Positions 5,031 through 41,204 of a stretch of 64,000 nucleotides of DNA are shown piece after piece. Numbering within the stretch: position 1 is the first letter of the stretch; each line of letters begins with the position of its first letter. The notes beneath the pieces were generated by a model. That model saw only the letters and a program-made list of their open reading frames with translations, searched no databases and was not told the DNA's origin. This stretch comes from an uncultured Candidatus Bathyarchaeia archaeon (lineage in GTDB: Archaea > Thermoproteota > Bathyarchaeia > Bathyarchaeales > DTEX01), in the NCBI GenBank assembly GCA_964508155.1, contig CAZDRE010000001.1, positions 197,174-261,173 of the forward strand. Reading direction: 5' to 3'. The position numbers and the translations under genes are program-made.

Positions 5031-5063
5031 CCCCTGTAGATCATAGCCTAAATGATGTTTAGA

Positions 5064-6308: not shown

Positions 6309-6783
6309 CTAGCATTCTATAGCTTCTCTCGCCTATATGCTTTGGGAGACCGATGTCTTCTCGAATGAATATCATTCCGCCACGCATGGAGTATCCAACT
6401 ATATCTCCGTCACGCTCATAAACTACTATCTTATCCTTATTTATGGTATTTCCAACGCCATCCTGAGCATCGCCGTGAATATAAATTGTAGGTCTATTCA
6501 TGAACGCTCCAAATCATTACCACGAGTCGGTTAAATGCGCAGTTCAGTTTAGCCTATAAGCCCGGTTCCAATGTATCTTTGACCCCTTCAGGTTGTATAG
6601 ATTGATCCTTTCATATTTGCCGCTGTAGGATTTTAGGAGAATATTGAGAATCCACCGGAGTCTTATCATCTCGGATGCCGGGCAATATGCATGTCCCGTA
6701 TAGACTCTCCCAAAATCTTTACTTTGGAGAAGGCGGCTTCGGCTGATGCGCGATTTACGGCGATCAGCATTCATATTCTGCAC
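6292..6783 (-). pseudogene. Disrupted GXGXG-motif protein (glutamate synthase domain-3 / FwdC-like)
   Basis: ORF 6292-6501 encodes IYIHGDAQDGVGNTINKDKIVVYERDGDIVGYSMRGGMIFI, which is GXGXG repeat pattern. ORF 6544-6783 resembles the N-terminal part (ERINLYNLKGSKIH). The two pieces are separated by stop codons. The C-terminus is missing and overlaps the MFS gene start. Confidence 0.45.
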
Positions 6784-6879
6784 TATTACCCCTAATCCGG
6801 TAAGATCCGGAATTAATGGAATATATTAGTAAAAAGGCATATATGGATTGATAAAGGATATAAATAAAAAATATATGGA

Positions 6880-10148: not shown

Positions 10149-11693
10149 TTATCCTCTCATAGGCCATCTCAAAACATGCATGATATCGGTCTTCGTTATT
10201 ATTCCAAGCAGCTTCTTAGGGTTTCTTTTGTCGACAACCAGTATCCTCCCGATTTTATGCTCGCTCATCTTTTCATAGACGTTCATTGCGGACTCGGTTG
10301 GGTACGCCGTTATCAGCCTTTTATGGGCTATCTCTTTAACTAGGGTCTCCTTGCGTCTTGAGGCTGGAACCCTAGATACATCATCGAAAGTCACTATCCC
10401 AACGAGCTCATCCCTTTCATTTAGAACTGGATAGCCCATGTGATGATGCTTGGTCATTATCGTCAGAACATCCTCAACGGTATATTCAGGCCTAACAGTT
10501 ATTATCTCCCTCGTCATTATCTGCTCAGCCCTAAGACTTGAGAGCAGACTTATCTCACGGGGCAGGAGCTCAAGCATGCGAATATATACTGGAGGAACAG
10601 GCTCTCTCCATCTCTTTCTCCTCTCTATTTCTTTAGCGGCGTATCTCTTCTTTAGGAGACCCATCTCTACGAAGTGAGCGTAGACATCCGGTCTCTCCTC
10701 TATCTTCCTAACGCGAATGACATTCGCTTTTACAGCGTCCTCAAATATTTCCTCGCCTATTTCGGTTCTTATGATGACTATCGACCAGTCCTTCAGTGGG
10801 TGGGCTCCTCCAACTGAGATGTCGGCGAGCTCGGATGTGAAGTCCTCACACATCTTACAGACGCTTAGCGTGTGCGCTTCAATTTCTGGTATGGATATTG
10901 ATATAACCCTTCCATCCTTCATAGAAACCTCATACTTCTTGTCAAGGTCGATCCTTAGGATATCACTGGCATTTACATTATATGCCTCCTTCAGGAATTT
11001 TGTGAGTTCAGGAAAGGAGAAACTCCAGAGGCATATTAGGCCTATAACTATCTTTAGGCTATTCATGATCTTATGCTCCCAGGCCTCAAGCTTTCGGATC
11101 GCCCTGACATGGCACGGCGTTCCAACAAAGGCTATCTTCGTCTTGCCGTATTCGTGAACTGCCCTTCCGAAGGCCTTAGCGACTGATGATGGAAAGTATT
11201 CGAAGTCAACTGCTGATAATAGATCGTCTGGAACGAGACTAAGTAATGGCTTAACCTTTATTGGAGTCTCCTTCTCGCTCTCTGATGTTATTGCGCCATC
11301 TATAAATCCAGTCTTGATTGCATGCATAAGTAGTGCGGTGATAACCCCTCCGCTATGACTTATCTCCCTCAATCTCTCATCGACGGCCTGTGCCAGGATT
11401 ATCTTCCGATAGTATCCTATGCTCTCAGTTATGTTCGGAGCTCCAGCGACGAATCCTAAAGTCTCTAGTAGAAGCGCTTCAGTGAATGGACATATGTCAT
11501 AGCATATTGGACAGAACTCCATGAAGTTTGTGCAGTCATGCGTATATTTGAGGCTTCTACCCTCGATCTTCAAGGCATGCACGGGACAAGCAGCTTCACA
11601 TGCACCGCAGAGATTACAAAAACCCGGCTCAATTATCATCTTCTTTAGGTCATTATATGCGATTAGATCCCTAGAAGTCTTCATGATCTCCAC
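10149..11693 (-). CDS. FrhB/FdhB-family flavo-iron-sulfur protein with an N-terminal 2x[4Fe-4S] domain and a C-terminal CBS pair
   Basis: Motifs CNLCGACEAACP and CPICYDICP, then an FrhB-like core (HSGGVITALL, KIAFVGTPCHVRAIRKLE). The last ~125 aa (10152-10526) form two CBS repeats. It starts 6 nt downstream of the hydrogenase ferredoxin gene. Confidence 0.8.
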   Translation of the reverse strand: MEIMKTSRDLIAYNDLKKMIIEPGFCNLCGACEAACPVHALKIEGRSLKYTHDCTNFMEFCPICYDICPFTEALLLETLGFVAGAPNITESIGYYRKIILAQAVDERLREISHSGGVITALLMHAIKTGFIDGAITSESEKETPIKVKPLLSLVPDDLLSAVDFEYFPSSVAKAFGRAVHEYGKTKIAFVGTPCHVRAIRKLEAWEHKIMNSLKIVIGLICLWSFSFPELTKFLKEAYNVNASDILRIDLDKKYEVSMKDGRVISISIPEIEAHTLSVCKMCEDFTSELADISVGGAHPLKDWSIVIIRTEIGEEIFEDAVKANVIRVRKIEERPDVYAHFVEMGLLKKRYAAKEIERRKRWREPVPPVYIRMLELLPREISLLSSLRAEQIMTREIITVRPEYTVEDVLTIMTKHHHMGYPVLNERDELVGIVTFDDVSRVPASRRKETLVKEIAHKRLITAYPTESAMNVYEKMSEHKIGRILVVDKRNPKKLLGIITKTDIMHVLRWPMRG

Positions 11694-11699
11694 TCAGAC

Positions 11700-12044
11700 T
11701 TAACTTTCTCTCCTATACTCATAAATCATTTTCTCACGGTCATCACCGGCATGCTCAAATTCGTCAGTCATGGTTATTGCGTTTCTTGGGCAACTCTCAG
11801 AGCATTGCCCACAGAATATGCATCTGTCAACGTAATGTTTTATCTCGGCTTTTAGGCCCTTCCCTATCATCTCGATCGCGCCGGAGGGGCATATGCGGCT
11901 ACATAGTCCGCATCCAACGCACTTTTGCATGTCCCAAACTGGACGTCCCCTGAAATCCTTGGGCACGGCTGCCTTCTCGAACGGATATTTGAGAGTGATC
12001 GGAGACTTGAAGATCTGCCTTATCGCCTCTAGTATTATGGACAA
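11700..12044 (-). CDS. 2x[4Fe-4S] ferredoxin subunit (NuoI/EchF/MbhN-like) of hydrogenase 1
   Basis: Motifs CVGCGLCSRICP and CIFCGQCSESCP. It overlaps the large-subunit gene by 10 nt. Confidence 0.85.
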   Translation of the reverse strand: MSIILEAIRQIFKSPITLKYPFEKAAVPKDFRGRPVWDMQKCVGCGLCSRICPSGAIEMIGKGLKAEIKHYVDRCIFCGQCSESCPRNAITMTDEFEHAGDDREKMIYEYRRES

Positions 12045-13204
12045 TGCTTTCTCATCCTCCGTACATTCTCTCTTAGGGTGTCGAAGTCTAGGATCTTCTT
12101 TCTTCCCGTGTTTACATCGATGAGGGCAAGCCTATCCATGCATGCGAAGCATGGGTCTATTCCAGCTAGGACTATCGGTATGTCGGCTACATGCTGTCCC
12201 ATCAGCATCTTGCATAGGGCTGGAATATTCGCTAGTGTTGGGCTTCTAACCTTATAGCGTTCAGGCCTAGCCGTTCCATTAGACCTTGCATAATGGATGA
12301 GCTCGCCTCTTGGAGCTTCAACCCTAGATACCGCCTCGTTTGGTTCTACAGCCATTGGAACCCTAACGCGTAGCATGCCTGCAGGCATGTGATCAAGGGC
12401 GTAGCGTATCATATTTATGCTCTCAAGCATCTCCTCGCACCTCACGATTATCCTAGCGAATACGTCGCATCCATCATGGATTACTACATTGAATGGTATC
12501 TCGTCGTAGGCTGCATACGGATCGTCCCTACGCACATCATTCTTTATTCCGCTTGCGCGTAGGGTTGGGCCTACAGCGCAGAGTTCAATCGCGTCTTTAG
12601 GCTTCAGAACCCCAACATCCACAGTTCTTTTTTGGATCGTCCTATCTGAACTTATGATCTTCATGTAATATTTGATCCTCTTCTCTAGAAAGTCTAGGCC
12701 ATCCTTTATCTTTGGAATCATCTCCGATGGTATGTCCCTTCTAACCCCTCCTATTGTATTCATTGCGTAGTGAACTCGATTCCCAGATATGAACTCAAGC
12801 ATGTCCATCACCGTCTCTCTGTCACGCCACAGATACATGAAGAGCGTATCGAAGCCTATCTCATGAGCGGCTATTCCAAGCCATAATGAATGGCTGTGTA
12901 TCCTTTCGAGCTCGGCTATTATCACACGTATATACTTCGCCCTTAGCGGGGCCTCGATGCCTAGAAGATCCTCTATTGCCTGCGTGTAGCATGTTGTATG
13001 GGCATCTGAGCATATTCCGCAGATACGTTCAGCCAAATAAATATTCTGAATGTATGTTCTTCTCTCGAATGCCTTCTCTATCCCCCTATGATTGTAGCCT
13101 ATTCTAGGCTTGACGTTAACGATTATGTCCCCATCAACCTCGAATGTAAAATGCTCCGGCTCCTTTAAGGCCGGATGCTGAGGGCCGAATGGAACCTTAA
13201 CTAT
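12035..13204 (-). CDS. [NiFe]-hydrogenase large subunit, group-4 type (EchE/MbhL/NuoD-like), hydrogenase 1
   Basis: L1 motif ERICGICSDAH and L2 motif DPCFACMDR, followed by a ~30-aa C-terminal extension. The conserved N-terminus (VKVPFGPQHPALKEPEHF...IGYNHRGIEK) is in frame upstream of the first canonical start (TTG at 13036). The only start-like codon there is ATA at 13204. Confidence 0.85.
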   Translation of the reverse strand: MVKVPFGPQHPALKEPEHFTFEVDGDIIVNVKPRIGYNHRGIEKAFERRTYIQNIYLAERICGICSDAHTTCYTQAIEDLLGIEAPLRAKYIRVIIAELERIHSHSLWLGIAAHEIGFDTLFMYLWRDRETVMDMLEFISGNRVHYAMNTIGGVRRDIPSEMIPKIKDGLDFLEKRIKYYMKIISSDRTIQKRTVDVGVLKPKDAIELCAVGPTLRASGIKNDVRRDDPYAAYDEIPFNVVIHDGCDVFARIIVRCEEMLESINMIRYALDHMPAGMLRVRVPMAVEPNEAVSRVEAPRGELIHYARSNGTARPERYKVRSPTLANIPALCKMLMGQHVADIPIVLAGIDPCFACMDRLALIDVNTGRKKILDFDTLRENVRRMRKHCP

Positions 13205-13710
13205 TGATCCGTAACCCGCCTTTCATCCCTCCCCGACTTGAGTATTGAGCCGCGAAGATCTTCTAGGCGGTATTCCTTTCTGAGCGGATAGATGCCCCTC
13301 GGCCAATTCTCGGGTAGAACCAGCGGGATCAAGTCTGGATGCCCAACGAAGTCTATCCCGAATAGATCATGAACTTCGCGCTCATACAATATCGCTCCTG
13401 GAATAACATCTGTTATCGTGGGGACTCTGGGATTCTCCTTTGGAACGTTGAATCTTAGGGATAATTCTATGGAGCCCTTATATGCGAAGTGATAGATAAC
13501 CTCAAAGTTCTCTTTGAGGTCTACTGCCGTTATCGTGGATAAATGCGTGAACCCCATGTCTTTCAGGTGTCTAATCGCATCCTTAAAGGCTTCGCTTCTT
13601 ACCCAAACAAAGATCCTACGTTTCCTCGGAACCTTCACATCTATTATGCCTTCTCTAAGCTGTCTCCTCAACTCAGATACTATCTCATCCTCTTCCATTA
13701 GCATCGCCAC
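13201..13710 (-). CDS. NuoC/EchD/MbhK-like (30-kDa family) subunit of hydrogenase 1
   Basis: Contains HLSTITAVD, ILYEREVHDLFGIDFVGHPD and LRKEY, the NuoC-family pattern. Confidence 0.85.
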   Translation of the reverse strand: MAMLMEEDEIVSELRRQLREGIIDVKVPRKRRIFVWVRSEAFKDAIRHLKDMGFTHLSTITAVDLKENFEVIYHFAYKGSIELSLRFNVPKENPRVPTITDVIPGAILYEREVHDLFGIDFVGHPDLIPLVLPENWPRGIYPLRKEYRLEDLRGSILKSGRDERRVTDQ

Positions 13711-14125
13711 GCTTGATCTTTTGAATGAGCTTTACCACGCCGTCGATTATAGCTTCAGGCTTAGGCGGACATCCCGGAACATAAACATCCACTGGGAGAA
13801 CCTCATCGACCCCTCCCAGGACATTATAGCAATCCTTGAATGGCGCTCCGCTGCATGCGCATGCCCCTATAGCCAGAACGTATTTTGGCTCAGGCATCTG
13901 ATCATATATCCTTACAAGCCTATCCCTAACCTGAAGTGTTACGGGACCTGTAACTGCGAGGATGTCAGCATGCCTCGGGCTTCCCTTAAGGAGGATGCCG
14001 AAACGTTCAACATCGAATCTTGGAGTGAAGGCAGCTACAACTTCTATGTCGCATCCGTTACATCCGCCGGCGTTAAAATGTATGATCCAAGGCGATCTCG
14101 TTTGAGCCCACCTAAGCAACCCCAT
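13685..14125 (-). CDS. [NiFe]-hydrogenase small subunit, group-4 type (NuoB/EchC/MbhJ-like), hydrogenase 1
   Basis: The four Cys of the proximal cluster are present (GGCNGC, GACACSG, PGCPP). Size is 146 aa. Confidence 0.9.
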   Translation of the reverse strand: MGLLRWAQTRSPWIIHFNAGGCNGCDIEVVAAFTPRFDVERFGILLKGSPRHADILAVTGPVTLQVRDRLVRIYDQMPEPKYVLAIGACACSGAPFKDCYNVLGGVDEVLPVDVYVPGCPPKPEAIIDGVVKLIQKIKRGDANGRG

Positions 14126-14209
14126 GACTATTCCTTCTTAGGAGGTATTCCTCAATCCTTTCTTCTATAAAGAGGAGAGTATGGTTTAAAGGTTTCTAGG
14201 CTCAAGGAC

Positions 14210-14956
14210 TCAGAAGCCCTTAAAATAATCGTACATCTCCAGGATCTCCCTGATCTTTTCAGAGAATACGGTCTTGGAGAATCTATTTGGGTCTCCGATG
14301 GCTTCTTCGAGCACATGATCGAATGGTATCTCCCCGAGATATTTCAGGCCGATCTCTCTTATTCGCTCTCGTATAAACGTGGATTCTCCCATCTTCATGT
14401 TCTCGATCACTCCTACTATCGGAACATTCAATTCGAGGAGTAGATCAATCAGCTTTTTAACGGTCTCAAATGCCAGCCTAGATGGCGTCACCACCAAGAG
14501 GAACCTAACCCTCTTCATGAGCTTGATTACGTCTAGGGTTGCATCGCCAATCCCCGGAGGCATATCGACTATTAAGTAGTCAAGTTGACCCCACCGAGTT
14601 ATTGCTAACAATTCTATCAGGGCATTTGATGCTTCCAATCCCCTTAGTGGCAGGGCTCTGTTGTCGGAAAAGTAGATTATGGACATGTATTTTATGCTGT
14701 GTATCTCAGGCGGGATTATGCCCTTCCACTCGGTCGGATGGGCCTCTCCCGCATTTAAGATGACATGTGTTGATGGGCTTGTGAAGTCCAGGTCTAAGAG
14801 TCCAACTTTATACTTTTTCTTCGCTAGGGCTAGGGCTATTGCGGATGCTATTAGGCTTTTGCCGACTCCTCCCTTCCCGCTTGAAACGGCGATTATATCG
14901 CTTATGTCCTTTAGTCTCTCATCTATGATGGATAATCTTGGATCCGACATCTTCAC
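14210..14956 (-). CDS. Mrp/MinD-family P-loop ATPase; probable ATPase-type HypB (Ni insertion partner of HypA)
   Basis: Deviant Walker A SGKGGVGKS. It overlaps hypA by 4 nt and precedes the hydrogenase 1 genes. No GTPase-type HypB is present in the window. Confidence 0.6.
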   Translation of the reverse strand: MKMSDPRLSIIDERLKDISDIIAVSSGKGGVGKSLIASAIALALAKKKYKVGLLDLDFTSPSTHVILNAGEAHPTEWKGIIPPEIHSIKYMSIIYFSDNRALPLRGLEASNALIELLAITRWGQLDYLIVDMPPGIGDATLDVIKLMKRVRFLLVVTPSRLAFETVKKLIDLLLELNVPIVGVIENMKMGESTFIRERIREIGLKYLGEIPFDHVLEEAIGDPNRFSKTVFSEKIREILEMYDYFKGF

Positions 14957-15354
14957 TTTACGCCCTTCAAGTCCTCAATCCAAACTCCACGTCCACCTAT
15001 AACCTCAAAGTCCGGACTGCCACATTTGGGGCATCTAATAAATGCGTGGATGACCTCCGGGATGAAGTGTATTGCCTCGGCTACATTCCCATCTATCTTC
15101 TCCTTTTCAAGGGACCATTTGAACCCGCAGTTTCTACATTTAATCTCGGCGTTAACGACCTCTATGTTGAACTTGGCATTCTTGAGGAGGCTTGAGTCTC
15201 TAAGTTGAGTTAAGGCGAACTTGAATACTTCGAGCTCTATTTGCTGGAGCTCCCCGATCTTCAATTTTACCTCCCTAATCTCCCTAAGTCCTTCACTCTC
15301 AGCTAGTCTAGAAATAGTTGAGATGACTGCTTCGGCTAAGGCCCATTCATGCAT
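14953..15354 (-). CDS. hypA: Hydrogenase nickel incorporation protein HypA
   Basis: N-terminal MHEWALAEA motif and zinc motifs CRNCG...CPKCG. The start is placed at the internal ATG at 15354 rather than at the ORF-track start at 15429. Confidence 0.9.
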   Translation of the reverse strand: MHEWALAEAVISTISRLAESEGLREIREVKLKIGELQQIELEVFKFALTQLRDSSLLKNAKFNIEVVNAEIKCRNCGFKWSLEKEKIDGNVAEAIHFIPEVIHAFIRCPKCGSPDFEVIGGRGVWIEDLKGVK

Positions 15355-15374
15355 GGGAAAGCCTAGACTACAAC

Positions 15375-15386
15375 AATATTTAAAGG
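15375..15386. promoter_or_regulatory. TATA-like box (aatatttaaagg) in the hypA / hypE divergent spacer
   Basis: It is centred ~26 nt upstream of the hypA ATG (15354), consistent with a leaderless mRNA, and ~55 nt upstream of the hypE ATG (15435). Confidence 0.4.
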
Positions 15387-15434
15387 TAATGCTGAGTGGA
15401 GATCCGTGGTGAGCTACAGCGTGGTGCATAATGG

Positions 15435-16502
15435 ATGAGGAGTAGAGATGGACATATTACTATGCTTCACGGCGCTGGCGGAACCGCCATGCACAGCCTA
15501 ATCAAGGATTATATTCTGAAGTATTTTGGGGAGGATCTCGAAGTTGATGTTCCGCTTGAGGCCTTGGATGACGCCGCGGTTATTGGCGATATTGTATTGA
15601 AGAGCGACTCGCACGCCGTTAAGCCCATATTCTTTCCGGGAGGAGATATCGGCTGCATAGCGGTTGCTGGCACCGTAAATGATATTGCGGTTTTAGGCGC
15701 TGAACCCCACGCCTTAGCGTGCGGCTTCATCCTAGAGGAGGGATTATCCCTAAGCGACTTCGAAAGGATCTTAATGAGTATGCGGCGGATGTGCCGCATG
15801 GCAGGAGTGAATATCGTTACTGGAGATACGAAGGTTGTTGAAAAGGGAAGTTTAGGGGGCTGTGTCATAAACACTTCTGGGATAGGCAGAAGGACTGATG
15901 CCCTAGAGAGAAACCTTAAGGTTGTGAGAGAGTTTAGGGGCGACTTCAAGGCGCGGTGGATTTTAGATTCGAATCTGAGGAAGGGCGATAAGATAATATT
16001 GTCAGGCACAATTGGGGATCACGGCGTAGCCGTTCTATCAGCGCAGGAAGGATTAGATTTTGGAGGAGATATAAAATCTGATGTTAAGCCTCTAAACCGG
16101 ATGATACAGGGCCTTTTAGGCGAGGTTGGCGGCGTAGTCGCAATGAAGGATCCAACTCGCGGGGGATTGGCTGATGCATTAAACGAGATCAGCGAGAAGT
16201 CCAATGTCGGCATACTTATCTATGAGGATAAGATTCCGATTAGAGATTCCGTGCGGGCTGCATGTGAGATGCTGGGCCTTGATCCCCTTGAGATAGGGAA
16301 TGAGGGTAAGGTGGTTATAGGCGTCGTTAGGGAGGCAGCGGAGGACGCCCTGGAATTTTTAAGGTCTACTGAGGAGGGGAGGGATGCTGAGATAATTGGA
16401 GAGGCAACCGATGAGTTTTCAGGCGTGGCCATGCAGACCATGATAGGCGGAAAGAGGATAATTAATAGGCCGGTTGGGGATCCAGTTCCGAGGATATGCT
16501 AA
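15435..16502 (+). CDS. hypE: Hydrogenase maturation protein HypE
   Basis: AIR-synthase-like fold pattern, N-terminal LHGAGG and the terminal PRIC motif. Confidence 0.9.
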   Translation: MRSRDGHITMLHGAGGTAMHSLIKDYILKYFGEDLEVDVPLEALDDAAVIGDIVLKSDSHAVKPIFFPGGDIGCIAVAGTVNDIAVLGAEPHALACGFILEEGLSLSDFERILMSMRRMCRMAGVNIVTGDTKVVEKGSLGGCVINTSGIGRRTDALERNLKVVREFRGDFKARWILDSNLRKGDKIILSGTIGDHGVAVLSAQEGLDFGGDIKSDVKPLNRMIQGLLGEVGGVVAMKDPTRGGLADALNEISEKSNVGILIYEDKIPIRDSVRAACEMLGLDPLEIGNEGKVVIGVVREAAEDALEFLRSTEEGRDAEIIGEATDEFSGVAMQTMIGGKRIINRPVGDPVPRIC

Positions 16503-17590
16503 TCCCCTCTGAAGCTCATGTTCTTCGCCCATATCCTGCATGTGCCCTCCATGCTCACCATGCATGGCCCCACTGGATTCTGCGGAGTGCACGCCTTCAT
16601 GAATAGTGGACATTCAGTCGGCCTTATCCTCCCAACTATTATGAGGTGACATTTGCATCCAGCCGGAATATCAACTCCACGTTCAACCCTTACGTTATAC
16701 TTCAGCCTTGAATCGTAGTTTTCATATTTGCCGCGGATCCTTAGTGCTGAATCCCTGATCATGCCGAGGCCTCTCCATCCGCCATCTACAACCTCAAAGG
16801 CGGCGCTCATCATCTTCTGAGCACGCACATTCCCCTCAGGCAGAACAGCCCGCACATACTCATTCTCCAAACGGGGCTTTCCCATTCTCAGTTGCCTGAG
16901 AATCATGTATATAGCGAATAAAACGTCTAGTGGCTCAAATCCCGCGATGACTGTTGGGATGCGATAATATTTCGGGAAGATCCTGTATGGTTTGAGCCCA
17001 ATAATAGTGCTGACGTGACCTGGCGCGATGAATCCATTCAAGTTTAGTTCTTCCATCTCGGCTAGGAGCTTCATTGCAGGCGGGATTAGCCGATGTGAGA
17101 TGAGGAAACTCATGTTTCTTGGAGGACCCTTTATGATCTCTACGGCTGTTGATGGAGCCGTAGTCTCGAATCCTATGGCGAAGAATGCGAATTGCCTGTC
17201 CGGTTCCCTCTCCGCCATCTTCACGGCGTCTGAGACGCTATAGACTACGCGTACATCCGCTCCTTCAGCCTTCGCATCTAGAAGGGACATGCTTGATCCT
17301 GGAACTCGCAGGACATCCCCGAAACATGCGATTACGACGCCATTTAATGCTAGTTGGATCGCTTCATCAATCTCTGATGCTGGGGTGATGCAGACTGGAC
17401 ATCCAGGCCCGGCGATGACCTCAACGTTAGATGGTAGTAGACTGCGTATTCCACAGTGCGTTATTGTCCACTCGTGTGTTCCGCAGACATGGCATATCTT
17501 TATCATGTCCTGATCTGATGCGAGCCTATGGATCCTCTCTACTATTCGCCTCGCTAAATCGGCATCTCTAAACTTTAAGTTTCCGATCAT
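16499..17590 (-). CDS. hypD: Hydrogenase maturation protein HypD
   Basis: Motifs CHVCGTHEW, GPGCPVCITP and GFETTAPS. Confidence 0.9.
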   Translation of the reverse strand: MIGNLKFRDADLARRIVERIHRLASDQDMIKICHVCGTHEWTITHCGIRSLLPSNVEVIAGPGCPVCITPASEIDEAIQLALNGVVIACFGDVLRVPGSSMSLLDAKAEGADVRVVYSVSDAVKMAEREPDRQFAFFAIGFETTAPSTAVEIIKGPPRNMSFLISHRLIPPAMKLLAEMEELNLNGFIAPGHVSTIIGLKPYRIFPKYYRIPTVIAGFEPLDVLFAIYMILRQLRMGKPRLENEYVRAVLPEGNVRAQKMMSAAFEVVDGGWRGLGMIRDSALRIRGKYENYDSRLKYNVRVERGVDIPAGCKCHLIIVGRIRPTECPLFMKACTPQNPVGPCMVSMEGTCRIWAKNMSFRGD

Positions 17591-17829
17591 TAGGCATCAG
17601 CACGCTGAGCCTCATCTGCCTCTAGGATCTCATTCCATAATCGAATCGTCTCCTCAGCCTGCTCTCTACTTAGGACTTGAATTGCATAGCCAGCGTGAAC
17701 CAGAACGTATTCTCCAACCTTAACGTCCACCAGCGTTACGTCTATCTCCTTTATGATTCCCCCTCCGAAGTCCACTTTAGCCCTATTCTCATGGATGCAT
17801 AGGACCTTAGCCGGAACAGCCAGACACAT
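17590..17829 (-). CDS. hypC: Hydrogenase maturation chaperone HypC
   Basis: N-terminal MCLAVPAKV. The start is set at the ATG giving Met-Cys. The stop overlaps the hypD start. Confidence 0.9.
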   Translation of the reverse strand: MCLAVPAKVLCIHENRAKVDFGGGIIKEIDVTLVDVKVGEYVLVHAGYAIQVLSREQAEETIRLWNEILEADEAQRADA

Positions 17830-17867
17830 GATCATCCAAGCATAAATGAATTGGAGAAATAAATCAG

Positions 17868-20156: not shown

Positions 20157-20294
20157 TCCCTATCGGCATCATTAAACTATGGGATCGTATTAAGCCGCGA
20201 TTAGTTAGGTGTATTCATCTACATAAAAGATCCTCAGTTTTAACGGCGTTAAAGATATATCCTCCGCATCAAACCAAGATCTGAGGGGAAGAGT

Positions 20295-20714
20295 ATGAAG
20301 CCTCCCTGCATAGTAGTCGTGAATTATCTCCTACCTGCAATTAGGATTCTTATCGCTAAGGAGCTGATTGAGAAGCATGGCTTAAACAGGATTGAAGCGG
20401 CTAAGAGGATGGGATTAACTCCAGCCGCTATCACACAATACTTTAAGAGAGCCAGGGGAGAGCCGGCACTTAAAATAATCAAGATACCAGATGAGGCGAC
20501 GAAGATGATATCTGAGATGGCGGAGGAGATCGCGGAGGATAGGGCATCAGCATATGATATAATAAAGAGGATATGTAAGATCTGCTGGATGATGAGATCT
20601 AAGGGTCTCCTCTGCGAGGCTCATAGGGAGATACTTCCAGCCCTAAGGGAGGACGAGATATGCGAGAGGGAGTTTCGCCTTCCACTCAAATACTGCTTAG
20701 AGAGAACCAGCTAG
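20295..20714 (+). CDS. HTH transcriptional regulator (XRE/COG2522-like) with a C-terminal Cys/His cluster
   Basis: LPAIRILIAKELIEKHGLNRIEAAKRMGLTPAAITQYFKRARG is an HTH pattern. The C-terminus carries CKICW...CEAH. It lies divergent to hypF. Confidence 0.55.
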   Translation: MKPPCIVVVNYLLPAIRILIAKELIEKHGLNRIEAAKRMGLTPAAITQYFKRARGEPALKIIKIPDEATKMISEMAEEIAEDRASAYDIIKRICKICWMMRSKGLLCEAHREILPALREDEICEREFRLPLKYCLERTS

Positions 20715-20752
20715 AATAATTAATCCCTAAAAGTTCGGGAGGTGGTAACATA

Positions 20753-20908
20753 TGGCTCAAAAGAGATTCCTGACATGTCCTAGATGCAACTTCAATTTTG
20801 AGGTGAGCTATGCTAGAGTATTCGCTTGCTCAGGATGTCCATCATCTGTATTCTGCAAATACGTGAAGTGTCCGAAGTGCGGCTATGAATTCCAGATTCG
20901 AAGATGAC
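20753..20908 (+). CDS. Small zinc-ribbon protein (51 aa), absent from the ORF track
   Basis: The ATG is preceded by gggaggtgg 5 nt upstream. Translation: MAQKRFLTCPRCNFNFEVSYARVFACSGCPSSVFCKYVKCPKCGYEFQIRR, with three CxxC pairs. Confidence 0.45.
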
Positions 20909-20919
20909 AACGTTAGATA

Positions 20920-21150
20920 TTACTCCTTAACTTTGAGGTTTTCGTTCAGCTCCTTCAGCAGCTCATCTAAATCAGCATTGTATGCTCTTGCAACCTCGCC
21001 TATCCTCAGCCTGCTCAATTCAAGCCTGGCAAATGGGCATACTGGGCAGTAGATACCATGCTTAACTAATATCCTACCCGCCCCTGGATCCCTCAGTATC
21101 TCCTTTAATGTCGTGTTCTCCGTGATCTTTCTTTTCGACAATGTATTCAC
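20920..21150 (-). CDS. DUF1858-like small redox/disulfide domain protein
   Basis: 76 aa. TLKEILRDPGAGRILVKHGIYCPVCPFARLE...ARAYNADLDELLKELN matches the ScdA N-terminal / DUF1858 pattern. Confidence 0.45.
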   Translation of the reverse strand: MNTLSKRKITENTTLKEILRDPGAGRILVKHGIYCPVCPFARLELSRLRIGEVARAYNADLDELLKELNENLKVKE

Positions 21151-21191
21151 GTGCTAAATCTATAATTGCCGCACTTAAATATTTAACGCTG

Positions 21192-21677
21192 TTAAATGTC
21201 CTCATCTGAGAGTATCTCAAGAAGCATCCTCGCGATCCTCCTTGCTGATCTTTGAACCTCAAAGCTCATCTCCTCCCCAAATCCGATCCTCCGCGGCTGT
21301 ATAGCCAGGAGCATGACCCTCGCGCCCAAAGTCTTCTCGATGACCTCCGCTAAAACTGAGAGTGGAACGTTATGGGTTGATAGAGGGATGCCCGAAATCA
21401 TTTCTGGCTTTATAAGCCTAGCCTCGCCTGGGTAGCCTCCGAAGTGCGCAGCGTCCATCATCAAGACGTGGGATGGACTGAACTTTCTTATCTCGCCTAT
21501 GAAGTTCTCCGGAACTGACTGGCAATCTATTATCTTAACTTTGTCTGGGACTTTACCCTTGAGCAACCTGACTATCTCTACTCCTACTCCATCGTCTCCC
21601 CTCATGGGGTTTCCTATGCCGAGTATTACCAGTCTCCCATAGTTCTTCAGCCAATCTGAAAGGCATCTCATTAACAT
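21192..21677 (-). CDS. Hydrogenase maturation endopeptidase (HycI/HybD family)
   Basis: LVILGIGNPMRGDDGVGVEIV motif, with an HNV/His near the C-terminal third. Both large subunits carry cleavable C-terminal extensions. Confidence 0.85.
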   Translation of the reverse strand: MLMRCLSDWLKNYGRLVILGIGNPMRGDDGVGVEIVRLLKGKVPDKVKIIDCQSVPENFIGEIRKFSPSHVLMMDAAHFGGYPGEARLIKPEMISGIPLSTHNVPLSVLAEVIEKTLGARVMLLAIQPRRIGFGEEMSFEVQRSARRIARMLLEILSDEDI

Positions 21678-21701
21678 AAGAGCCGCTTCCGAACTGAAGT
21701 T

Positions 21702-22298
21702 TTAGAGGAATCTTCCCTTATAGAATGTTGTGGCTGGGCATCCTATACATTTCCCAGATGGGTAGCATAATTCTTCGCTGCATATCTTTCCGCAGGGGGA
21801 TCTACTTCCCCTCTTATACCACATTTTTATTGGAACAACGAGATCCTTCGCCGTTGCTATGACCACATTGAACTCAACATCCGTGACGTTTGGATTCTTC
21901 CTTATGTGGTAGTTTATGCAGGACTCAATCGCTGAGAGCCTCTCACCTATGAAGAATAGACATAAATTGTGCCTGCCAGAGGTGACCAGTCCGTTAATAA
22001 ACATTGGGCAGTTCTCAAAGAAGCCCAAAACCTTCCATGGATCCCTCGCTGTCATATCTATCTTCGCTATGTATAAATCCGTCTCCTTCAGGTTCATTCC
22101 GACAACATGCTCTATGACCCCGGCGTCCTCTAATCTCTTTATCCTAGCATAAACCGCCGGCTGGGATATTCCAAGCCTCCGAGCGATCTCGCTCTGAGAG
22201 ATCCTCGGTTCCTCCATCAGATATGATATTATTCTCTTATCAATCTCATCTATCTCGGCGCCTCTCAATGCCTTCACCAGCCTACACTTAAGTGCCAA
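21702..22298 (-). CDS. Lrp/AsnC-family transcriptional regulator with a Cys-rich C-terminal extension
   Basis: HTH segment DKRIISYLMEEPRISQSEIARRLGISQPAVYARIKRLEDAGVI, then a RAM-like domain, then the tail CGKICSEELCYPSGKCIGCP. It lies divergent to the hydrogenase 2 operon. Confidence 0.75.
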   Translation of the reverse strand: MALKCRLVKALRGAEIDEIDKRIISYLMEEPRISQSEIARRLGISQPAVYARIKRLEDAGVIEHVVGMNLKETDLYIAKIDMTARDPWKVLGFFENCPMFINGLVTSGRHNLCLFFIGERLSAIESCINYHIRKNPNVTDVEFNVVIATAKDLVVPIKMWYKRGSRSPCGKICSEELCYPSGKCIGCPATTFYKGRFL

Positions 22299-22339
22299 GC
22301 CGCTTATGCACTATCAGATCATACATTATCATCCATAAA

Positions 22340-22430
22340 AATTTTTCCACAAAAAACTATTAATTATAGATAATTTTTCCGAAAGCACAAAAGATATATA
22401 GGAAAAAATGCGTTTCTTTTTTATAATTCT
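22340..22430. promoter_or_regulatory. Divergent promoter region with three copies of an AATTTTTCC motif and TATA-like boxes
   Basis: AATTTTTCC occurs at 22340-22348 and 22372-22380 (direct) and inverted as GGAAAAAAT at 22401-22409. The second and third copies flank aaagatatata. The box ttttttataa at 22417-22426 lies ~29 nt upstream of the ATG at 22451. Confidence 0.35.
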
Positions 22431-22450
22431 CAAGTGGAGTTAGGCAGATC

Positions 22451-22924
22451 ATGCTGACGAGAACAAAGAGCAACCAAAGGGTTCTACTATTTGATCCTGC
22501 AAGGTGCACTGGATGCAGGTACTGCGAGATCGCATGTTCATTCTATCATTTTGGGACGTTAGGCTTTGAAGGGGCAAATCTGCATGTGATATTTGATGAG
22601 GAGAGAGACGAGTTTGAGGCTATATATTGTCAGCACTGCGATGAGCCCATATGCATGGCTGCATGCCCAAACAGTGCTATAACAAAGGATGAGGAGACGG
22701 GATGGGTTAGGATAAACCCAACCATATGCATAGGATGTAAAACTTGCAGTATAGTCTGCCCTCTCTCCGCTCCATGGTTCAACGAGAAATTCCATGTTTC
22801 AATGAAATGCGACTTCTGCGGTGGAGATCCACAATGCGCCAAGTTCTGCTCTCCGCAGGCAATAAGGGTGACGACGCGTGAGGAGGCCTTAAGACTCAAT
22901 AAGAGGAGATATTTGGAGGTTTAG
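22451..22924 (+). CDS. Multi-cluster [4Fe-4S] ferredoxin subunit (HycB/DmsB-like) of hydrogenase 2
   Basis: Motifs CTGCRYCEIAC, CQHCDEPICMAACP, CIGCKTCSIVCP and CDFCGG..CAKFC. Confidence 0.85.
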   Translation: MLTRTKSNQRVLLFDPARCTGCRYCEIACSFYHFGTLGFEGANLHVIFDEERDEFEAIYCQHCDEPICMAACPNSAITKDEETGWVRINPTICIGCKTCSIVCPLSAPWFNEKFHVSMKCDFCGGDPQCAKFCSPQAIRVTTREEALRLNKRRYLEV

Positions 22925-22928
22925 GTTC

Positions 22929-23597
22929 ATGCGCATTGAGGAGGAGATCGCCGATTATATGCGTAAGGAGCTGAATAACGCTCTTATAGGCGTAGATATA
23001 CCACGTGAAAGGAGAGTCCTACTGATTATTAAGCCAGAAGCCCTAAGGAGAGCCGTTAATGCCCTAAAGAATAATTATTCAAACCTCAGATTCATAACTA
23101 TCACGGTTGTGGATAATGGATTAGACTTCGAGTTCCTACACCACTTTAATATAGGCGGCGTAATCGCAACTCTGAAAAGTTTAAGGGCGAAGGAGGAGAA
23201 TATTCTCGAGTCTATCGCTGATCTAATTCCAGCGGCGACCTTCATAGAGCGGGAGATCGCGGATCTATTCGGCATAAAGATACTTGATCATGAAGCTAAG
23301 AATCTGATATTGACGAGAGACTGGCCGGAAGATAAGCGTCCACTGAGGAAGCCGCTTATGGGGCCTCTTCCAAAGCAGGCTAGGCCCGTAGCCGAGGCTT
23401 TGATATCAACTGGCTGCGTCGCTCCAATCTCGAGGATGATGGAGAGAAAACGGGAGTCGGCTGGGCTTTCTAAAACGCCTGCCTTCACTTTCACGGAAGA
23501 TGAGGATCTACGTGAATTTCACGAAATATTGAGGGACACCAGCCTATCAGAGAGTGTAGGCTTCGATTGGAAGAGAAAAAAGTTGAGATATAGGTGA
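22929..23597 (+). CDS. NuoC/EchD-like subunit of hydrogenase 2 with a ~80-aa C-terminal extension
   Basis: FITITVVD, ATFIEREIADLFGIKILDHE and LRKPL match the NuoC-family pattern. The tail has no recognisable motif. Confidence 0.8.
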   Translation: MRIEEEIADYMRKELNNALIGVDIPRERRVLLIIKPEALRRAVNALKNNYSNLRFITITVVDNGLDFEFLHHFNIGGVIATLKSLRAKEENILESIADLIPAATFIEREIADLFGIKILDHEAKNLILTRDWPEDKRPLRKPLMGPLPKQARPVAEALISTGCVAPISRMMERKRESAGLSKTPAFTFTEDEDLREFHEILRDTSLSESVGFDWKRKKLRYR

Positions 23598-23603
23598 AGT
23601 TGC

Positions 23604-24479
23604 ATGGGCAGATATGCTCTTTTTCTCGGATGTCAAATTCCGATGCGCATTCCAAGCGTTGAGATCGCATCGAGAAACATATTTGAAAAGTTAGGCCTGG
23701 AAATATCTGATCTTAAGGGTTACTCATGCTGCCCCGAGCCCGTTATATCCCGGCTATTAGATGAGAAGGCTTGGCTTACAGTCTCAGCGCGAAACATTAC
23801 GCTGGCGGAGGAGTTAGGTCTCGACATAGCAACGCTATGTAATGGATGTTATGAAACTCTACTCGAGGCGAATGTCATTCTCAAGCGTGACCGAGAAATG
23901 AGGGAGCAGGTGAATAGCATCCTTAGGAGATATGGAAGGGAGTATAGAGGAGTAGTCGACGTTAAGCACATAGTCGAGGTTCTATATGAGGATGCCGGGT
24001 TAGAGAAGATTAGGGAGCATGTTGTTAAGCCTCTGAAGATCCGCGTTGCTCTACATTACGGTTGCCATTTATATCGGGAGCCGAATGGCGGGGATATTAT
24101 GCGTAAGCCAGATATGATGAGGAGGCTGGCGGAGGCCGCTGGTGCCACAGTAGTGAATTATGGGCTTGAACGTTTATGCTGCGGATATCCAAGCATGCAG
24201 GTAGATGAGGAATTCTCACTCAATCAGAGGCTGCTTCCGAAGTTGAGGAGGATAAAGGATGCTGGAGCAGACGCTGTAATCCTAACATGCCCAGCATGTA
24301 ACATACAATTTGAGACTGGGCAGGTGCTTCTTAGAGCACGTGGCATACGCTTTGATATTCCATGCCTGAACCTAATGGAGCTCCTAGCATTATCTTTTGG
24401 AGTTCCATACGAGAAGCTGCATCTCGAAGTTCATAGGAGCCCCGTTCTACAGTTCGCTAAAAGATTGGAGGGGAATTAA
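23604..24479 (+). CDS. HdrB-like protein with two complete CCG domains
   Basis: First motif C-X31-CC-X35-CNGC and second motif C-X37-CC-X35-CPAC, counted directly in the translation. The gene sits between the NuoC-like and large-subunit genes, with gaps of 6 and 3 nt. Confidence 0.85.
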   Translation: MGRYALFLGCQIPMRIPSVEIASRNIFEKLGLEISDLKGYSCCPEPVISRLLDEKAWLTVSARNITLAEELGLDIATLCNGCYETLLEANVILKRDREMREQVNSILRRYGREYRGVVDVKHIVEVLYEDAGLEKIREHVVKPLKIRVALHYGCHLYREPNGGDIMRKPDMMRRLAEAAGATVVNYGLERLCCGYPSMQVDEEFSLNQRLLPKLRRIKDAGADAVILTCPACNIQFETGQVLLRARGIRFDIPCLNLMELLALSFGVPYEKLHLEVHRSPVLQFAKRLEGN

Positions 24480-24482
24480 GCC

Positions 24483-25610
24483 TTGCCCGAAACCGTTCAT
24501 ATTGGACCATACCGTCCGCAGATGGTAGAGCCTGAAAGATTCGAGCTTCTAGTAGAGAATGGCCGGATAACCGATGTTAATATCGAGTTGGGTTATGTTC
24601 ACAGGGGGATAGAACGGCTCTTCACTCAGAAGACCTACATGCAGAACTTGGCGCTTGCCGAGCGAATCTGCGGGATATGCTCCGGGGTGCATACGCTCTG
24701 TTACGCGCAGACTGTTGAGGCGATAATGAACGTGGATGTCCCGGAGAGAGCCGAGTATCTGCGTTGCATATACATGGAGCTTGAGCGGCTGCACAGTCAC
24801 TATTTATGGTTTGGAGTATTGGCTCACAGCCTACATGAGCATGAAGCCTTCCTGAAGATAATGACTGAGAGGGAGCAGATTCAGGACCTACTTGAATACC
24901 TAACTGGGAATAGGATAAACTATTTGATTAATACGATAGGCGGCGTCAGGAGAGATATAACTTCGAGGAAGGCTGAGAAGATTCGTAAGGTCCTAAGAAG
25001 CCTTAGGAAGCTCTCAGATTATCTGCTCTCACTTCTAGATGAGGATGGAGCATTCACAGAGAAGATTAAGGGCATAGGGGTCTTGCCGAGGGAGAAGGCG
25101 TTAAGTCTGGGAGCAGTCGGCCCTACACTGCGTGGATCCGGAGTGGAAAGCGATGTGCGTAGGGATGATCCATACGCTGCCTATGACAGGTTAGACTTCA
25201 ATGTGATAACTGAGGATGAGGGTGATGTGTGGGCTAGAACCTCTGTTAGAGCGAAGGAGACATTGGAGAGCATAAGCATAATTGAGCAGGCCCTTGATGA
25301 ACTTCCTGGGGGCGAAATAGCGGTTAAGCCCGGTGAGCCTCTGGAGAGGGAGGAGATTGGGAGGGCTGAAGCTCCACGCGGAGAACTCGTCTATTACATT
25401 AGATCGGATGGGACGAATATACCTGCGAGGGTGAAGGTGAGAACCCCATCCTTCGCTAATAACTTTGCATTAACAGAGATGCTTCGCGGCGATAGACTTC
25501 AGGATGCAAGGGTGATAATTGAGAGTATAGATCCATGCTTCGCATGCACGGATCGCGTTACAGTTGTAGATGCGAAGACTGGTAGGAGACGGTTGGTGGA
25601 GTTGATCTAG
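24483..25610 (+). CDS. [NiFe]-hydrogenase large subunit, group-4 type, hydrogenase 2
   Basis: L1 motif ERICGICSGVH and L2 motif DPCFACTDR, plus a 20-aa C-terminal extension. TTG start. It shares blocks with the hydrogenase 1 large subunit (DVRRDDPYAAYD, EAPRGEL). Confidence 0.9.
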   Translation: MPETVHIGPYRPQMVEPERFELLVENGRITDVNIELGYVHRGIERLFTQKTYMQNLALAERICGICSGVHTLCYAQTVEAIMNVDVPERAEYLRCIYMELERLHSHYLWFGVLAHSLHEHEAFLKIMTEREQIQDLLEYLTGNRINYLINTIGGVRRDITSRKAEKIRKVLRSLRKLSDYLLSLLDEDGAFTEKIKGIGVLPREKALSLGAVGPTLRGSGVESDVRRDDPYAAYDRLDFNVITEDEGDVWARTSVRAKETLESISIIEQALDELPGGEIAVKPGEPLEREEIGRAEAPRGELVYYIRSDGTNIPARVKVRTPSFANNFALTEMLRGDRLQDARVIIESIDPCFACTDRVTVVDAKTGRRRLVELI

Positions 25611-26543
25611 ATGGGTGATGGGAAGATCTCAATTTATAGGTTCATGTCCGCTGGCTGTAACGGCTGCGACGTGCAGATACTCGAGTGTCTAGTTCCAAGA
25701 TACGGGCTTGAGGATCTTGGAGTGGAGATTGTATCAACGCCTGATAAGGCAAATGTCCTCGCGGTAACCGGGGGAATAAATGTTAAGGGATTAGAGGAGC
25801 TGAAAAACGCCTATGAAAGGCTTAGGCCGCCTAAGATCGTCATTGCAGTCGGAAACTGCGCCGTAACTAAGGGGATATTCAGCGACGGCTACCCAATGGT
25901 AGGCCCACCCGACCGGATAATCCCGGTGAACCTTTATATTCCTGGATGCCCGCCCAGGCCTCAGGCCATAGTCTCAGCCATAGCGAAGATTTTAGGCACT
26001 AGCATCGAGAGGAGGGAGGATTATTGGTGTACGCCTGAGGGTTTCAGGGGGAAGCATGAGTTTGACGGGGATAAGTGTATTGGATGCGGTGCATGCGCTC
26101 AGATATGCAGCTCCCAGGCCATAGAGGTGCATGATGAGGATGGAAGGCGAATGATAAGAGTTAACTATGGGAGATGCACCTTCTGCGCCTTCTGCCAGGA
26201 TGAATGCCCAACAGAGGCGATAAGGCTTACAGGGGAATATCACTTATCAACTGTGGATCGGGAGGATGCATATGTCGAGAATGAGGTTGAGATGCTTAGG
26301 TGCCGCATATGCGGATCATATTATGCGCCTGTAAGGCAGGTTGACTGGGCAATAAAGAGGGCAGTTACGGAATCGGATATAAGGGATGAGCTAGTCGGAG
26401 AATTAAGGAGGGCCACTGAAGTATGCCCAGACTGCAGAATGAAGATAGATAATATTAGGAGGGCAAAGAGGATACTGGTGCAGCTCTCTTTGAGGGGGTC
26501 GGGAATAGCCGCAGGCTGTGACGCTTCCAAGCTAGAGGGTTAG
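25611..26543 (+). CDS. Fusion of the group-4 small subunit (NuoB-like) with a 2x[4Fe-4S] (NuoI-like) domain and a C-terminal CxxC...CxxC tail
   Basis: Residues 1-130 carry GCNGC, GNC and PGCPP. Residues 150-205 carry CIGCGACAQIC and CTFCAFCQDECP. Residues 231-275 carry CRICG-X37-CPDC. Confidence 0.85.
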   Translation: MGDGKISIYRFMSAGCNGCDVQILECLVPRYGLEDLGVEIVSTPDKANVLAVTGGINVKGLEELKNAYERLRPPKIVIAVGNCAVTKGIFSDGYPMVGPPDRIIPVNLYIPGCPPRPQAIVSAIAKILGTSIERREDYWCTPEGFRGKHEFDGDKCIGCGACAQICSSQAIEVHDEDGRRMIRVNYGRCTFCAFCQDECPTEAIRLTGEYHLSTVDREDAYVENEVEMLRCRICGSYYAPVRQVDWAIKRAVTESDIRDELVGELRRATEVCPDCRMKIDNIRRAKRILVQLSLRGSGIAAGCDASKLEG

Positions 26544-41144: not shown

Positions 41145-41204
41145 TAATCATTAAAAGGGCAGCTTCCCCTATATTTCGTTTAGTTCTACAGTTTCATTTT
41201 GGAA

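Follow-up and report, generated by a model that had tools for sequence, protein, structure and literature searches.

How did two hydrogenase operons of the group-4 type, neither with a gene for a membrane subunit, come to lie on either side of a complete set of maturation genes in the genome of a Bathyarchaeon? The question is raised by a gene cluster at positions 10149-26543 of a 64-kb stretch of contig CAZDRE010000001.1, which we call the window and which is the part of the genome in view here. Group-4 hydrogenases are regarded as membrane-bound, energy-converting relatives of complex I, and Bathyarchaeia rank with the most abundant archaea of sediments. A sequence-only reading of the window had described a compact island in which a soluble group-4 module had been duplicated and had then acquired different electron-exit subunits, the whole being possibly mobile. 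Our domain calls, made by Pfam and NCBIfam scans on the open reading frame (ORF) listing of the window, recovered every gene named in that reading at its coordinates. The gene inventory, the compactness of the cluster, the complete Hyp set with an endopeptidase between the modules (HypB by a PDB match) and the unlike exit subunits, FrhB-CBS in module 1 and HdrB in module 2, all stand. The account of origin fares differently. With a probability of about 0.6, the interval groups three units that were ancestrally separate, a clustering specific to this lineage; it is neither duplicated nor a mobile island, and its module 1 derives from the Hfo hydrogenase.

Every best match of the two large subunits, Large1 (module 1) and Large2 (module 2), comes from Bathyarchaeia, and the closest collinear relative is contig QMXE01000019 of the metagenome-assembled genome B71_G16 from Guaymas (locus L002), with 92.98% nucleotide identity over 17.2 kb. 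By these matches the host is a Bathyarchaeon of the Guaymas type.

Two group-4 hydrogenase modules

The genes of module 1, in the order of transcription, are as follows.

13685-14125, minus strand: NuoB-like small subunit, 146 amino acids (aa), with the proximal [4Fe-4S] Cys motifs (Pfam; NCBIfam NuoB family above cutoff)
13201-13710, minus strand: NuoC/30-kDa subunit, 169 aa (Pfam; NCBIfam)
12035-13204, minus strand: large (catalytic) subunit Large1, group-4 [NiFe], Hfo clade (motifs, alignments, neighbour-joining tree)
11700-12044, minus strand: NuoI-like 2x[4Fe-4S] subunit, 114 aa (Pfam; NCBIfam NuoI)
10149-11693, minus strand: FpoF-like FrhB-CBS, 514 aa, with an N-terminal 2x[4Fe-4S] ferredoxin domain, an FrhB_N/FrhB_C flavin/F420-type domain and a C-terminal CBS pair (Pfam)

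The genes of module 2 are located at the other end of the cluster.

22451-22924, plus strand: HycB-like ferredoxin with 16 Cys, giving room for four [4Fe-4S] clusters (PF13247, Fer4_11; Cys count)
22929-23597, plus strand: NuoC-like subunit with a C-terminal extension, 222 aa (Pfam, alignment)
23604-24479, plus strand: HdrB-like subunit with two CCG domains (Pfam; TIGR03288 at 282 bits, below the 345-bit cutoff)
24483-25610, plus strand: large (catalytic) subunit Large2, group-4 [NiFe], 375 aa, TTG start (Pfam, motifs)
25611-26543, plus strand: NuoB-like small subunit fused to a NuoI/HycF-like 2x[4Fe-4S] domain, 310 aa, 19 Cys (Pfam, NCBIfam)

Both large subunits match PF00346 and PF00374 and carry the group-4 motifs, searched as C[GS][ILV]C[AGNS]xxH for L1 and [DE][PL]Cx[AGST]Cx[DE][RL] for L2. 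Large1 reads CGICSDAH and DPCFACMDR and has a C-terminal extension of 31 aa, and Large2 reads CGICSGVH and DPCFACTDR. Each module combines a NuoB-like small subunit holding a single proximal cluster with NuoC-like and NuoI-like subunits. We assign both catalytic cores to group 4 because their nearest solved relatives, the best PDB matches of the two large subunits, are MbhL (6cfw_L) and HycE (7z0s_E).

The modules had been called soluble, and as far as genes go this is correct. A hydropathy scan of the ten module subunits (19-residue window, mean Kyte-Doolittle threshold 1.6) revealed no multi-helix membrane protein among them, giving just two marginal single windows, at residues 209-227 of FrhB-CBS (1.71) and 344-362 of Large1 (1.62). 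Searches by tblastn with queries from a related locus found no homologs of NuoA, H, J, K, L, M or N in the whole 64-kb window. Neither the NuoH-like anchor nor the NuoL/M/N- or Mrp-type antiporter genes that stand beside the core of an energy-converting complex are therefore present in the window.

Duplication and mobility

The blocks that had suggested a duplication, DVRRDDPYAAYD, EAPRGEL and DPCFAC, are indeed identical in both large subunits in the pairwise alignment, and a 59-nt stretch over the DPCFAC region has 73% DNA similarity. However, the pairwise identity of the modules is 47% for the large subunits, 37% for the small subunits and 38% for NuoC, and gene order and gene fusions differ between the two. 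Closer relatives of each large subunit occur elsewhere, as orthologs across Bathyarchaeia at 58-97% identity, each set with a conserved operon design of its own. Among the matches listed, identities range over 74-96% for Large1 and 76-95% for Large2, with Large2 orthologs down to 58% in the representative library. When the first 70 cluster representatives (50% clustering) were compared, 18 outscored Large2 against Large1, including an Asgard cluster and a Clostridia/Moorella cluster named 'formate hydrogenlyase subunit 5', and only two outscored Large1 against Large2. A neighbour-joining (NJ) tree of 104 sequences, HydDB references not among them (369 columns, 100 bootstraps), places Large1 in a Bathyarchaeia clade with 100% support. 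Large2 belongs to another clade, supported at 99-100%, and the two are not sisters. Membership of different clades, which had been set beforehand as evidence against a duplication, is thus largely what the NJ tree gives. Because their mutual identity is low, their orthologs are closer and their clades are separate, the split of Large1 and Large2 is old, dating back at least to the time when these Bathyarchaeia diversified, and the data do not show this split to be a duplication at all.

Composition and borders do not mark the cluster as a mobile island either. GC is flat across it (0.44-0.50) and GC3 is like that of the other window genes (0.523 vs 0.538). The tRNA scan found 0 tRNA genes, the repeat scan no flanking repeats and the Pfam scan no integrase among the flanking genes covered; that is, the compositional, tRNA/attachment-border, direct-repeat and integrase/transposase traits of a genomic island were not found. 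The neighbours are ordinary metabolic and other genes (AOR, GH127, MFS, PhoU, GNAT, PHO4, GH9, TBP, CDC48 and the like). A small shift is seen in synonymous codon usage, where the distance between the cluster and the other window genes is 0.0545 as compared to 0.041 +/- 0.006 for random partitions (p ~0.013). This shift is weak, is not diagnostic of mobility and could reflect expression level. A raw codon-frequency distance, seemingly significant, was set aside as it is confounded by amino-acid composition.

The distribution of the genes in relatives points in the same direction. Among 80 Bathyarchaeia genome loci found with HypF, the full cluster layout is present in L002 only. The conserved core is hypF-C-D (80/80), about 70 loci keep hypF-C-D(-E) only, and a longer run, hypFCDEA-mrp-nuoBCD, is common to L049 and L087, the latter found separately with the large subunit. 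Module 2 with hycI lies ~7 kb from hypF in L010 and L014. On the 1.4-Mb contig Ga0315547_1000001, a module-1-type cluster is located at ~1.18 Mb and module 2 at ~0.59 Mb, 587 kb apart. The gene set is thus largely scattered in relatives, an outcome that had been named as speaking against an island, and the compact arrangement is confined to the closest relatives.

A recent in-lineage duplication of a soluble group-4 module, after which each copy took up an exit subunit of its own and the whole was carried on an island that is mobile or came by horizontal transfer, would explain the long identical blocks, the compact packing and the slight codon deviation. Set against the 47% identity, the differing gene order and fusions, the closer orthologs and representatives, the separate well-supported clades, the 587-kb separation in a relative and the ordinary borders and GC, such an origin is very improbable. 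We favour a clustering of three units instead. The first is the co-oriented, tightly packed run hypA, mrp(hypB), nuoB, nuoC, nuoD, nuoI and frhB-CBS. The second would be the maturation set hypFCD, hypE and hycI, serving both enzymes, and the third a Cys-rich AsnC-type regulator divergent from the five-gene operon of module 2 (HycB-like ferredoxin, NuoC, HdrB, NuoD and NuoB/I fusion).

Proposed descent of module 1 from Hfo

The 11-subunit, Fpo-like architecture of Bathyarchaeia has been described as Hfo, group 4g (Loh, Herve and Brune 2021, PMC7886697). From its eleven subunits NuoABCDHIJKLMN, encoded in Fpo-like order, module 1 has B, C, D and I only, and mrp precedes nuoB. These four subunits show 59-83% identity to their counterparts in Bathyarchaeia loci that have the nuoABCDHI + JKLMN layout. 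Large1, in which the L1 and L2 motifs are kept, has orthologs at 76-83% identity in nuoA-B-C-D-H-I clusters that also have a nuoJ-K-L-(M)-N arm, divergently oriented (L082, L086, L088). In the NJ tree, Large1 and the membrane-less P0127 fall within a clade of 100% bootstrap together with membrane-type loci, among them P0196, P0131 and P0154, whose loci show the 11-gene layout; we name this clade Hfo by the locus architecture of its members and not by published Hfo sequences. In contrast to Hfo, the module 1 operon is devoid of all seven membrane subunits, is joined behind hypA-mrp and ends in the FrhB-CBS gene, whereas published Hfo is described without an F420-binding module.

The nuoI start overlaps the large-subunit stop in the window and therefore nuoH is not between them. 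A metagenome scan with Large1 yielded 80 loci, 69 of which are informative for the gene after the large subunit; this gene is nuoH in 61/69 and nuoI in 8/69. Ahead of nuoB, nuoA is found in 50 metagenome loci and mrp in 7. The membrane-less layout is fixed in two sub-lineages, ~96% and ~84% identical to the window, on at least 8 independent contigs, and nests within membrane-type relatives in the NJ tree. The simplest reading of this pattern would be one loss event behind the membrane-less form. We propose that the hydrogenase of unit 1 descends from the 11-subunit group-4g Hfo by loss of nuoA, H, J, K, L, M and N.

It is also conceivable, although unlikely, that the operon has merely been split, so that module 1 still serves as the peripheral arm of an Hfo that is membrane-bound and translocates ions, and whose nuoA, H, J, K, L, M and N genes lie elsewhere in the genome. 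The inspected part of the genome is 64 kb, so membrane-arm genes could be present beyond it with the NuoBCDI arm still docking on them, and in membrane-type loci the membrane genes already occupy separate, divergent blocks. NuoB, NuoD and NuoI are nearly free of class-specific changes: a comparison of membrane-less with membrane-type loci gave class-discriminating columns numbering 0 in NuoB, 3 in NuoI and 2 in NuoD. Remodelling of the NuoH interface is thus not visible in these subunits, which agrees with a recent loss as well as with continued docking. However, nuoH usually sits between nuoD and nuoI, which overlap here, and would have had to move alone; the layout without nuoA and nuoH is fixed in both sub-lineages; and the 64 kb hold no membrane-subunit homolog.

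Some related loci deserve mention beside the Hfo clade. In L152 and L163, metagenome loci with a large subunit 66-67% identical to Large1, nuoI also directly follows the large-subunit gene; frhB-CBS does not come after nuoI in L152, and the stretch of L163 ends too early to show. These loci may represent an independent nuoH loss or rearrangement in another lineage. A third bathyarchaeal type of group-4 large subunit, from outside the window, is P0245/P0391 (RLG96984.1, Bathyarchaeota; 560 aa), which is 55% identical to Large1 and whose NuoD-like part starts at ~residue 176. It is probably a NuoC-NuoD fusion, and in the NJ tree no other outgroup stands closer to the Hfo clade (52% bootstrap).

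Downstream of frhB-CBS by 48 nt, on the same strand, lies a 705-aa ORF (orf705; 7983-10100, minus strand), 90% identical in L002, for which no Pfam or NCBIfam match was found. It was rejected as a member of module 1, since besides the missing domain match it carries a signal peptide as well as a transmembrane anchor at the C-terminus and is absent downstream of frhB-CBS in L087.

FrhB-CBS as a putative F420 module

The domain layout of FrhB-CBS is that of FpoF, the N-terminal ferredoxin domain included, and its PDB matches are FrhB-family chains. Its gene comes immediately after nuoI in 5/5 of the close membrane-less loci that are informative and in 9/38 membrane-type loci, the latter chiefly the ones closest to the window. 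Because it follows nuoI in membrane-less and nearest membrane-type loci alike, FrhB-CBS appears to be the FpoF-equivalent partner of this Hfo sub-clade. The Hfo paper reports the F420 module as absent and the source of F420H2 as unclear, and Bathyarchaeia as encoding F420 biosynthesis (PMC7886697). In the window, a gene for a CofE-type F420-0:gamma-glutamyl ligase (41199-42053, plus strand; PF01996, 72 bits) indicates an organism predicted to make F420, which bears on the substrate of FrhB-CBS.

Known enzymes with such a subunit differ from module 1 in other respects. Ehi, Fpo/FpoF and Frh resemble it in joining a group-4 or complex-I-like core to an FrhB/FpoF-family flavoprotein and in the H2-F420 link proposed for them. 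However, Ehi and Fpo are membrane-bound, whereas module 1 is a group-4 core without membrane genes, and Frh is built on the group-3a catalytic dimer FrhA/FrhG, which is not what module 1 encodes (FrhA score 76 vs cutoff 392; FrhG 35 vs 245). The CBS pair on FrhB is found in module 1, unlike Ehi, Fpo and Frh.

What the sequences show directly for both modules is their genes, motifs, orthologs and synteny in relatives, and that the window has no membrane-subunit genes; solubility, substrates, catalytic direction and regulation are predictions. Module 1 would work as an enzyme of the cytoplasm, with an electron path linking the [NiFe] site, the NuoB cluster, both NuoI clusters and, in FrhB, the ferredoxin domain and the flavin. 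It would equilibrate H2 with F420, or with another FrhB substrate, without ion pumping, and the CBS pair might tune its activity to adenosine-nucleotide status.

A different chemistry, in which FrhB-CBS uses ferredoxin, rubredoxin or NAD(P) and module 1 is not F420-linked, seems to us the less plausible option, to be ranked with the split operon. Sequence does not reveal the substrate of an FrhB, and proteins of this family can serve several acceptors; a Thermococcus FrhAGB enzyme is reported to reduce rubredoxin (PMC13333549). The NCBIfam scores of FrhB-CBS are far below the equivalog cutoffs (FrhB 188 vs 269, FpoF 111 vs 475). On the other side stand the CofE-type ligase gene, the report of F420 biosynthesis without a known F420H2 source in Bathyarchaeia, and the frhB-flanked, membrane-bound group-4 hydrogenases 'Ehi' of Methanonezhaarchaeia, which have been interpreted as F420-linked (PMC12700198).

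The start of the module 1 large subunit

The N-terminus of Large1 is without ATG, GTG or TTG and was placed by homology at an ATA (13204-13202, minus strand; junction 13197-13226). The ancestral ATG is GCG in 5/5 members of the lineage at 95-97% identity, the nuoC stop that overlapped it is gone, and nuoC is extended to a TAG that overlaps the ATA (ATAG). Just past a GGAGGG motif at this nuoC/large-subunit junction, an out-of-frame ATG opens a 9-codon ORF. No slippery heptamer for a nuoC-nuoD frameshift fusion was seen in the overlap on inspection by eye. Gene callers yield a shortened 333-aa product in this lineage (P0150, P0151).

These features could be taken to mean that module 1 is a decaying remnant, left without an active hydrogenase once the membrane arm and the start codon of the catalytic subunit had been lost. 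However, Large1 of the window and of L002 differ by 45 synonymous and 12 nonsynonymous codons, and the stretch of 61 codons ahead of the first in-frame TTG accounts for 10 and 0 of these, with 35 and 12 in the remaining codons. The N-terminal codons are therefore translated and under purifying selection. None of the [NiFe] and Fe-S motifs is disrupted, a normal ATG is still present in the sister membrane-less lineage (L087, L095, L097, L098), and the nickel-insertion genes hypA and mrp stand directly ahead of the operon on the same strand. We consider decay to be hardly credible.

Several of the results given above count against the clustering of separate units with descent of module 1 from Hfo. 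The deep nodes of the NJ tree are without support, and the tree was built without HydDB references. NuoB, NuoD and NuoI bear next to no mark of the loss of NuoH, and the membrane-arm genes could lie beyond the visible 64 kb. The codon-usage shift, the several acceptors open to an FrhB-family protein and the missing canonical start codon of the large-subunit gene belong here too.

Module 2, an HdrB-containing hydrogenase

The five-gene operon of module 2 recurs, again with no membrane gene, in L084/L085 (large subunit 77% identical) and L089 (58%). Its hdrB lies between nuoC and nuoD, that is, inside the group-4 cluster, a position conserved in L084 and L089, and the HdrB scores 258 bits to the methanogen HdrB 8rvu_b. 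The AsnC-type regulator gene is likewise divergent in L084/L085, and L089 has only a 78-aa AsnC_trans_reg gene upstream. Neither HdrC nor an ion-antiporter subunit is encoded in the module 2 operon of the window, L084 or L089.

HdrB-interacting group-4 hydrogenases have already been described as Ehd, Ehe, Ehg, Drh and an Ehd-like clade (PMC9723716, PMC6046458). Bathyarchaeia sequences fall in the Ehd-like clade (PMC9723716), and the Drh of Methanocella has no antiporter (PMC9723716, PMC6046458). Module 2 shares with Ehd, Ehe, Ehg and Drh the hdrB within the hydrogenase operon, with Drh the absence of an antiporter subunit, and with the HdrB-linked group the GcvH and HdrA/MvhD genes that neighbour its operon type in relatives. 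Unlike this group, it has a HycB-like polyferredoxin in place of HdrC, a small subunit fused to NuoI/HycF, and a membrane subunit in none of its three lineages. Likened by gene content and not by reference sequences, its predicted composition is closest to that of Drh. We propose that module 2 acts as a non-pumping H2:disulfide oxidoreductase of the Ehd/Drh kind, in which electrons would pass from the [NiFe] site over the NuoB cluster, the NuoI/HycF clusters and the HycB-like clusters to HdrB.

In L084 and L089 the operon adjoins genes for GcvH, an HdrA-like protein and FlpD (MvhD), and in L084 also for TusA, DsrE and DsrH, with a gene for a sulfur-transport protein on the TusA/DsrE/DsrH side (neighbour stretches 4611-6941 and 14349-21128 in L084; 1060-4787 and 10375-17146 in L089). 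This neighbourhood resembles the sHdr-LbpA system of sulfur oxidisers and, by analogy, hints that the substrate of HdrB may be protein-bound sulfur or a lipoyl disulfide.

Maturation genes, small genes and regulators

The genes between the two modules are the following.

14210-14956, minus strand: Mrp/NUBPL (Mrp/MinD-type) ATPase, after hypA and before module 1 (PDB 3vx3, 237 bits)
14953-15429, minus strand: HypA nickel metallochaperone (Pfam; NF003008 at 173 bits, cutoff 125)
15435-16502, plus strand: HypE (AIRS/AIRS_C domains; beside hypD in most Bathyarchaeia loci)
16499-17590, minus strand: HypD (PF01924, 472 bits)
17590-17835, minus strand: HypC (PF01455)
17868-20156, minus strand: HypF carbamoyltransferase (full HypF domain set)
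20295-20714, plus strand: HTH_3 (XRE-like) protein with a Cys/His-rich tail, 139 aa, candidate regulator (PF01381, 24.7 bits, barely above cutoff)
20752-20907, plus strand: 51-aa protein with 7 Cys, possible zinc ribbon (zinc-ribbon Pfam match below cutoff)
20920-21150, minus strand: DUF1858/TIGR03980-like protein, 76 aa, CPVC motif (below cutoffs: Pfam 21.6 < 32.2, NCBIfam 39.4 < 44.95)
21192-21677, minus strand: HycI-type maturation endopeptidase, the sole one in the cluster (TIGR00142, 124.8 bits, cutoff 119.1)
21702-22298, minus strand: AsnC/Lrp-type HTH regulator with a Cys-rich C-terminus, divergent from module 2 (Pfam)

A complete [NiFe] maturation set is present, consisting of HypA, an Mrp-type HypB substitute, HypC, D, E and F and a HycI-type protease. 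The Mrp ATPase is read as the archaeal HypB substitute because it scores 237 bits to the Mrp/MinD-type HypB of T. kodakarensis (3vx3), far above the Fe-S carriers (at most 116 bits), and has 0 Cys. The true start of hypA is probably an internal ATG at ~15354, as in the 133-aa gene call of L001. As in the Hyp system of T. kodakarensis (PDB 3vx3, 5aun), hypA adjoins an Mrp/MinD ATPase without the cysteines of Fe-S carriers, and hypC, D, E and F occur with a HycI-type protease. In contrast to that system, the hypA-mrp pair of the window stands directly ahead of a hydrogenase operon on the same strand. The C-terminal extensions of Large1 and Large2 begin alike, which fits a single HycI that would process both large subunits.

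The AsnC-type regulator has an ortholog, 65% identical and in the same divergent position, in L084/L085 (L084 7190-7765, minus strand), with which it conserves the motif CGKxCx4CYPSxKCxGCP. A RAM/AsnC ligand domain is not detectable in the protein encoded at 21702-22298. The protein has a conserved set of Cys, those of this C-terminal motif among them, and may regulate the HdrB hydrogenase in response to metals or redox state. In L002 the regulator gene has a stop codon near its annotated start. Among the smaller genes, HTH_3 was seen in L001, L002 and L003 only, and the 51-aa and DUF1858-like genes in L001 and L002 only.

The flanks of the cluster carry genes for glycoside hydrolases of families GH127 and GH9 and for an aldehyde:ferredoxin oxidoreductase (1748-3652, plus strand; 30936-32831, minus strand; 3-725, plus strand). 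A polymer-degrading, fermentative lifestyle of the host would fit these genes.

Meaning of the two modules

What the modules may signify is read from their gene content. Going by the literature searched, the new element would be an Hfo derivative without a membrane arm and with an FrhB-CBS subunit, the other parts being of known kinds. A bolder proposal can be put forward only tentatively, and we hold it to be rather less likely than the clustering itself. Hfo would have been reduced to a truly soluble group-4 enzyme (NuoB, C, D and I with the FpoF-like FrhB-CBS) that fills the place of the missing F420-reducing hydrogenase in Bathyarchaeia; in neighbour lineages, FrhB-CBS would in addition be the overlooked F420 module of the membrane-bound Hfo; and the catalytic subunit of one sub-lineage would be translated without a canonical start, by AUA re-initiation or by frameshifting.

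Module 2, as known here from its gene content alone, would be a further example of direct H2-to-disulfide coupling outside methanogens. If the reading of module 1 is true, a peripheral-arm module can work, and be selected, alone, and module 1 would provide a small soluble model for the transition between complex I and hydrogenases. It would also point to where Bathyarchaeia obtain or dispose of F420H2, the point left open in PMC7886697.

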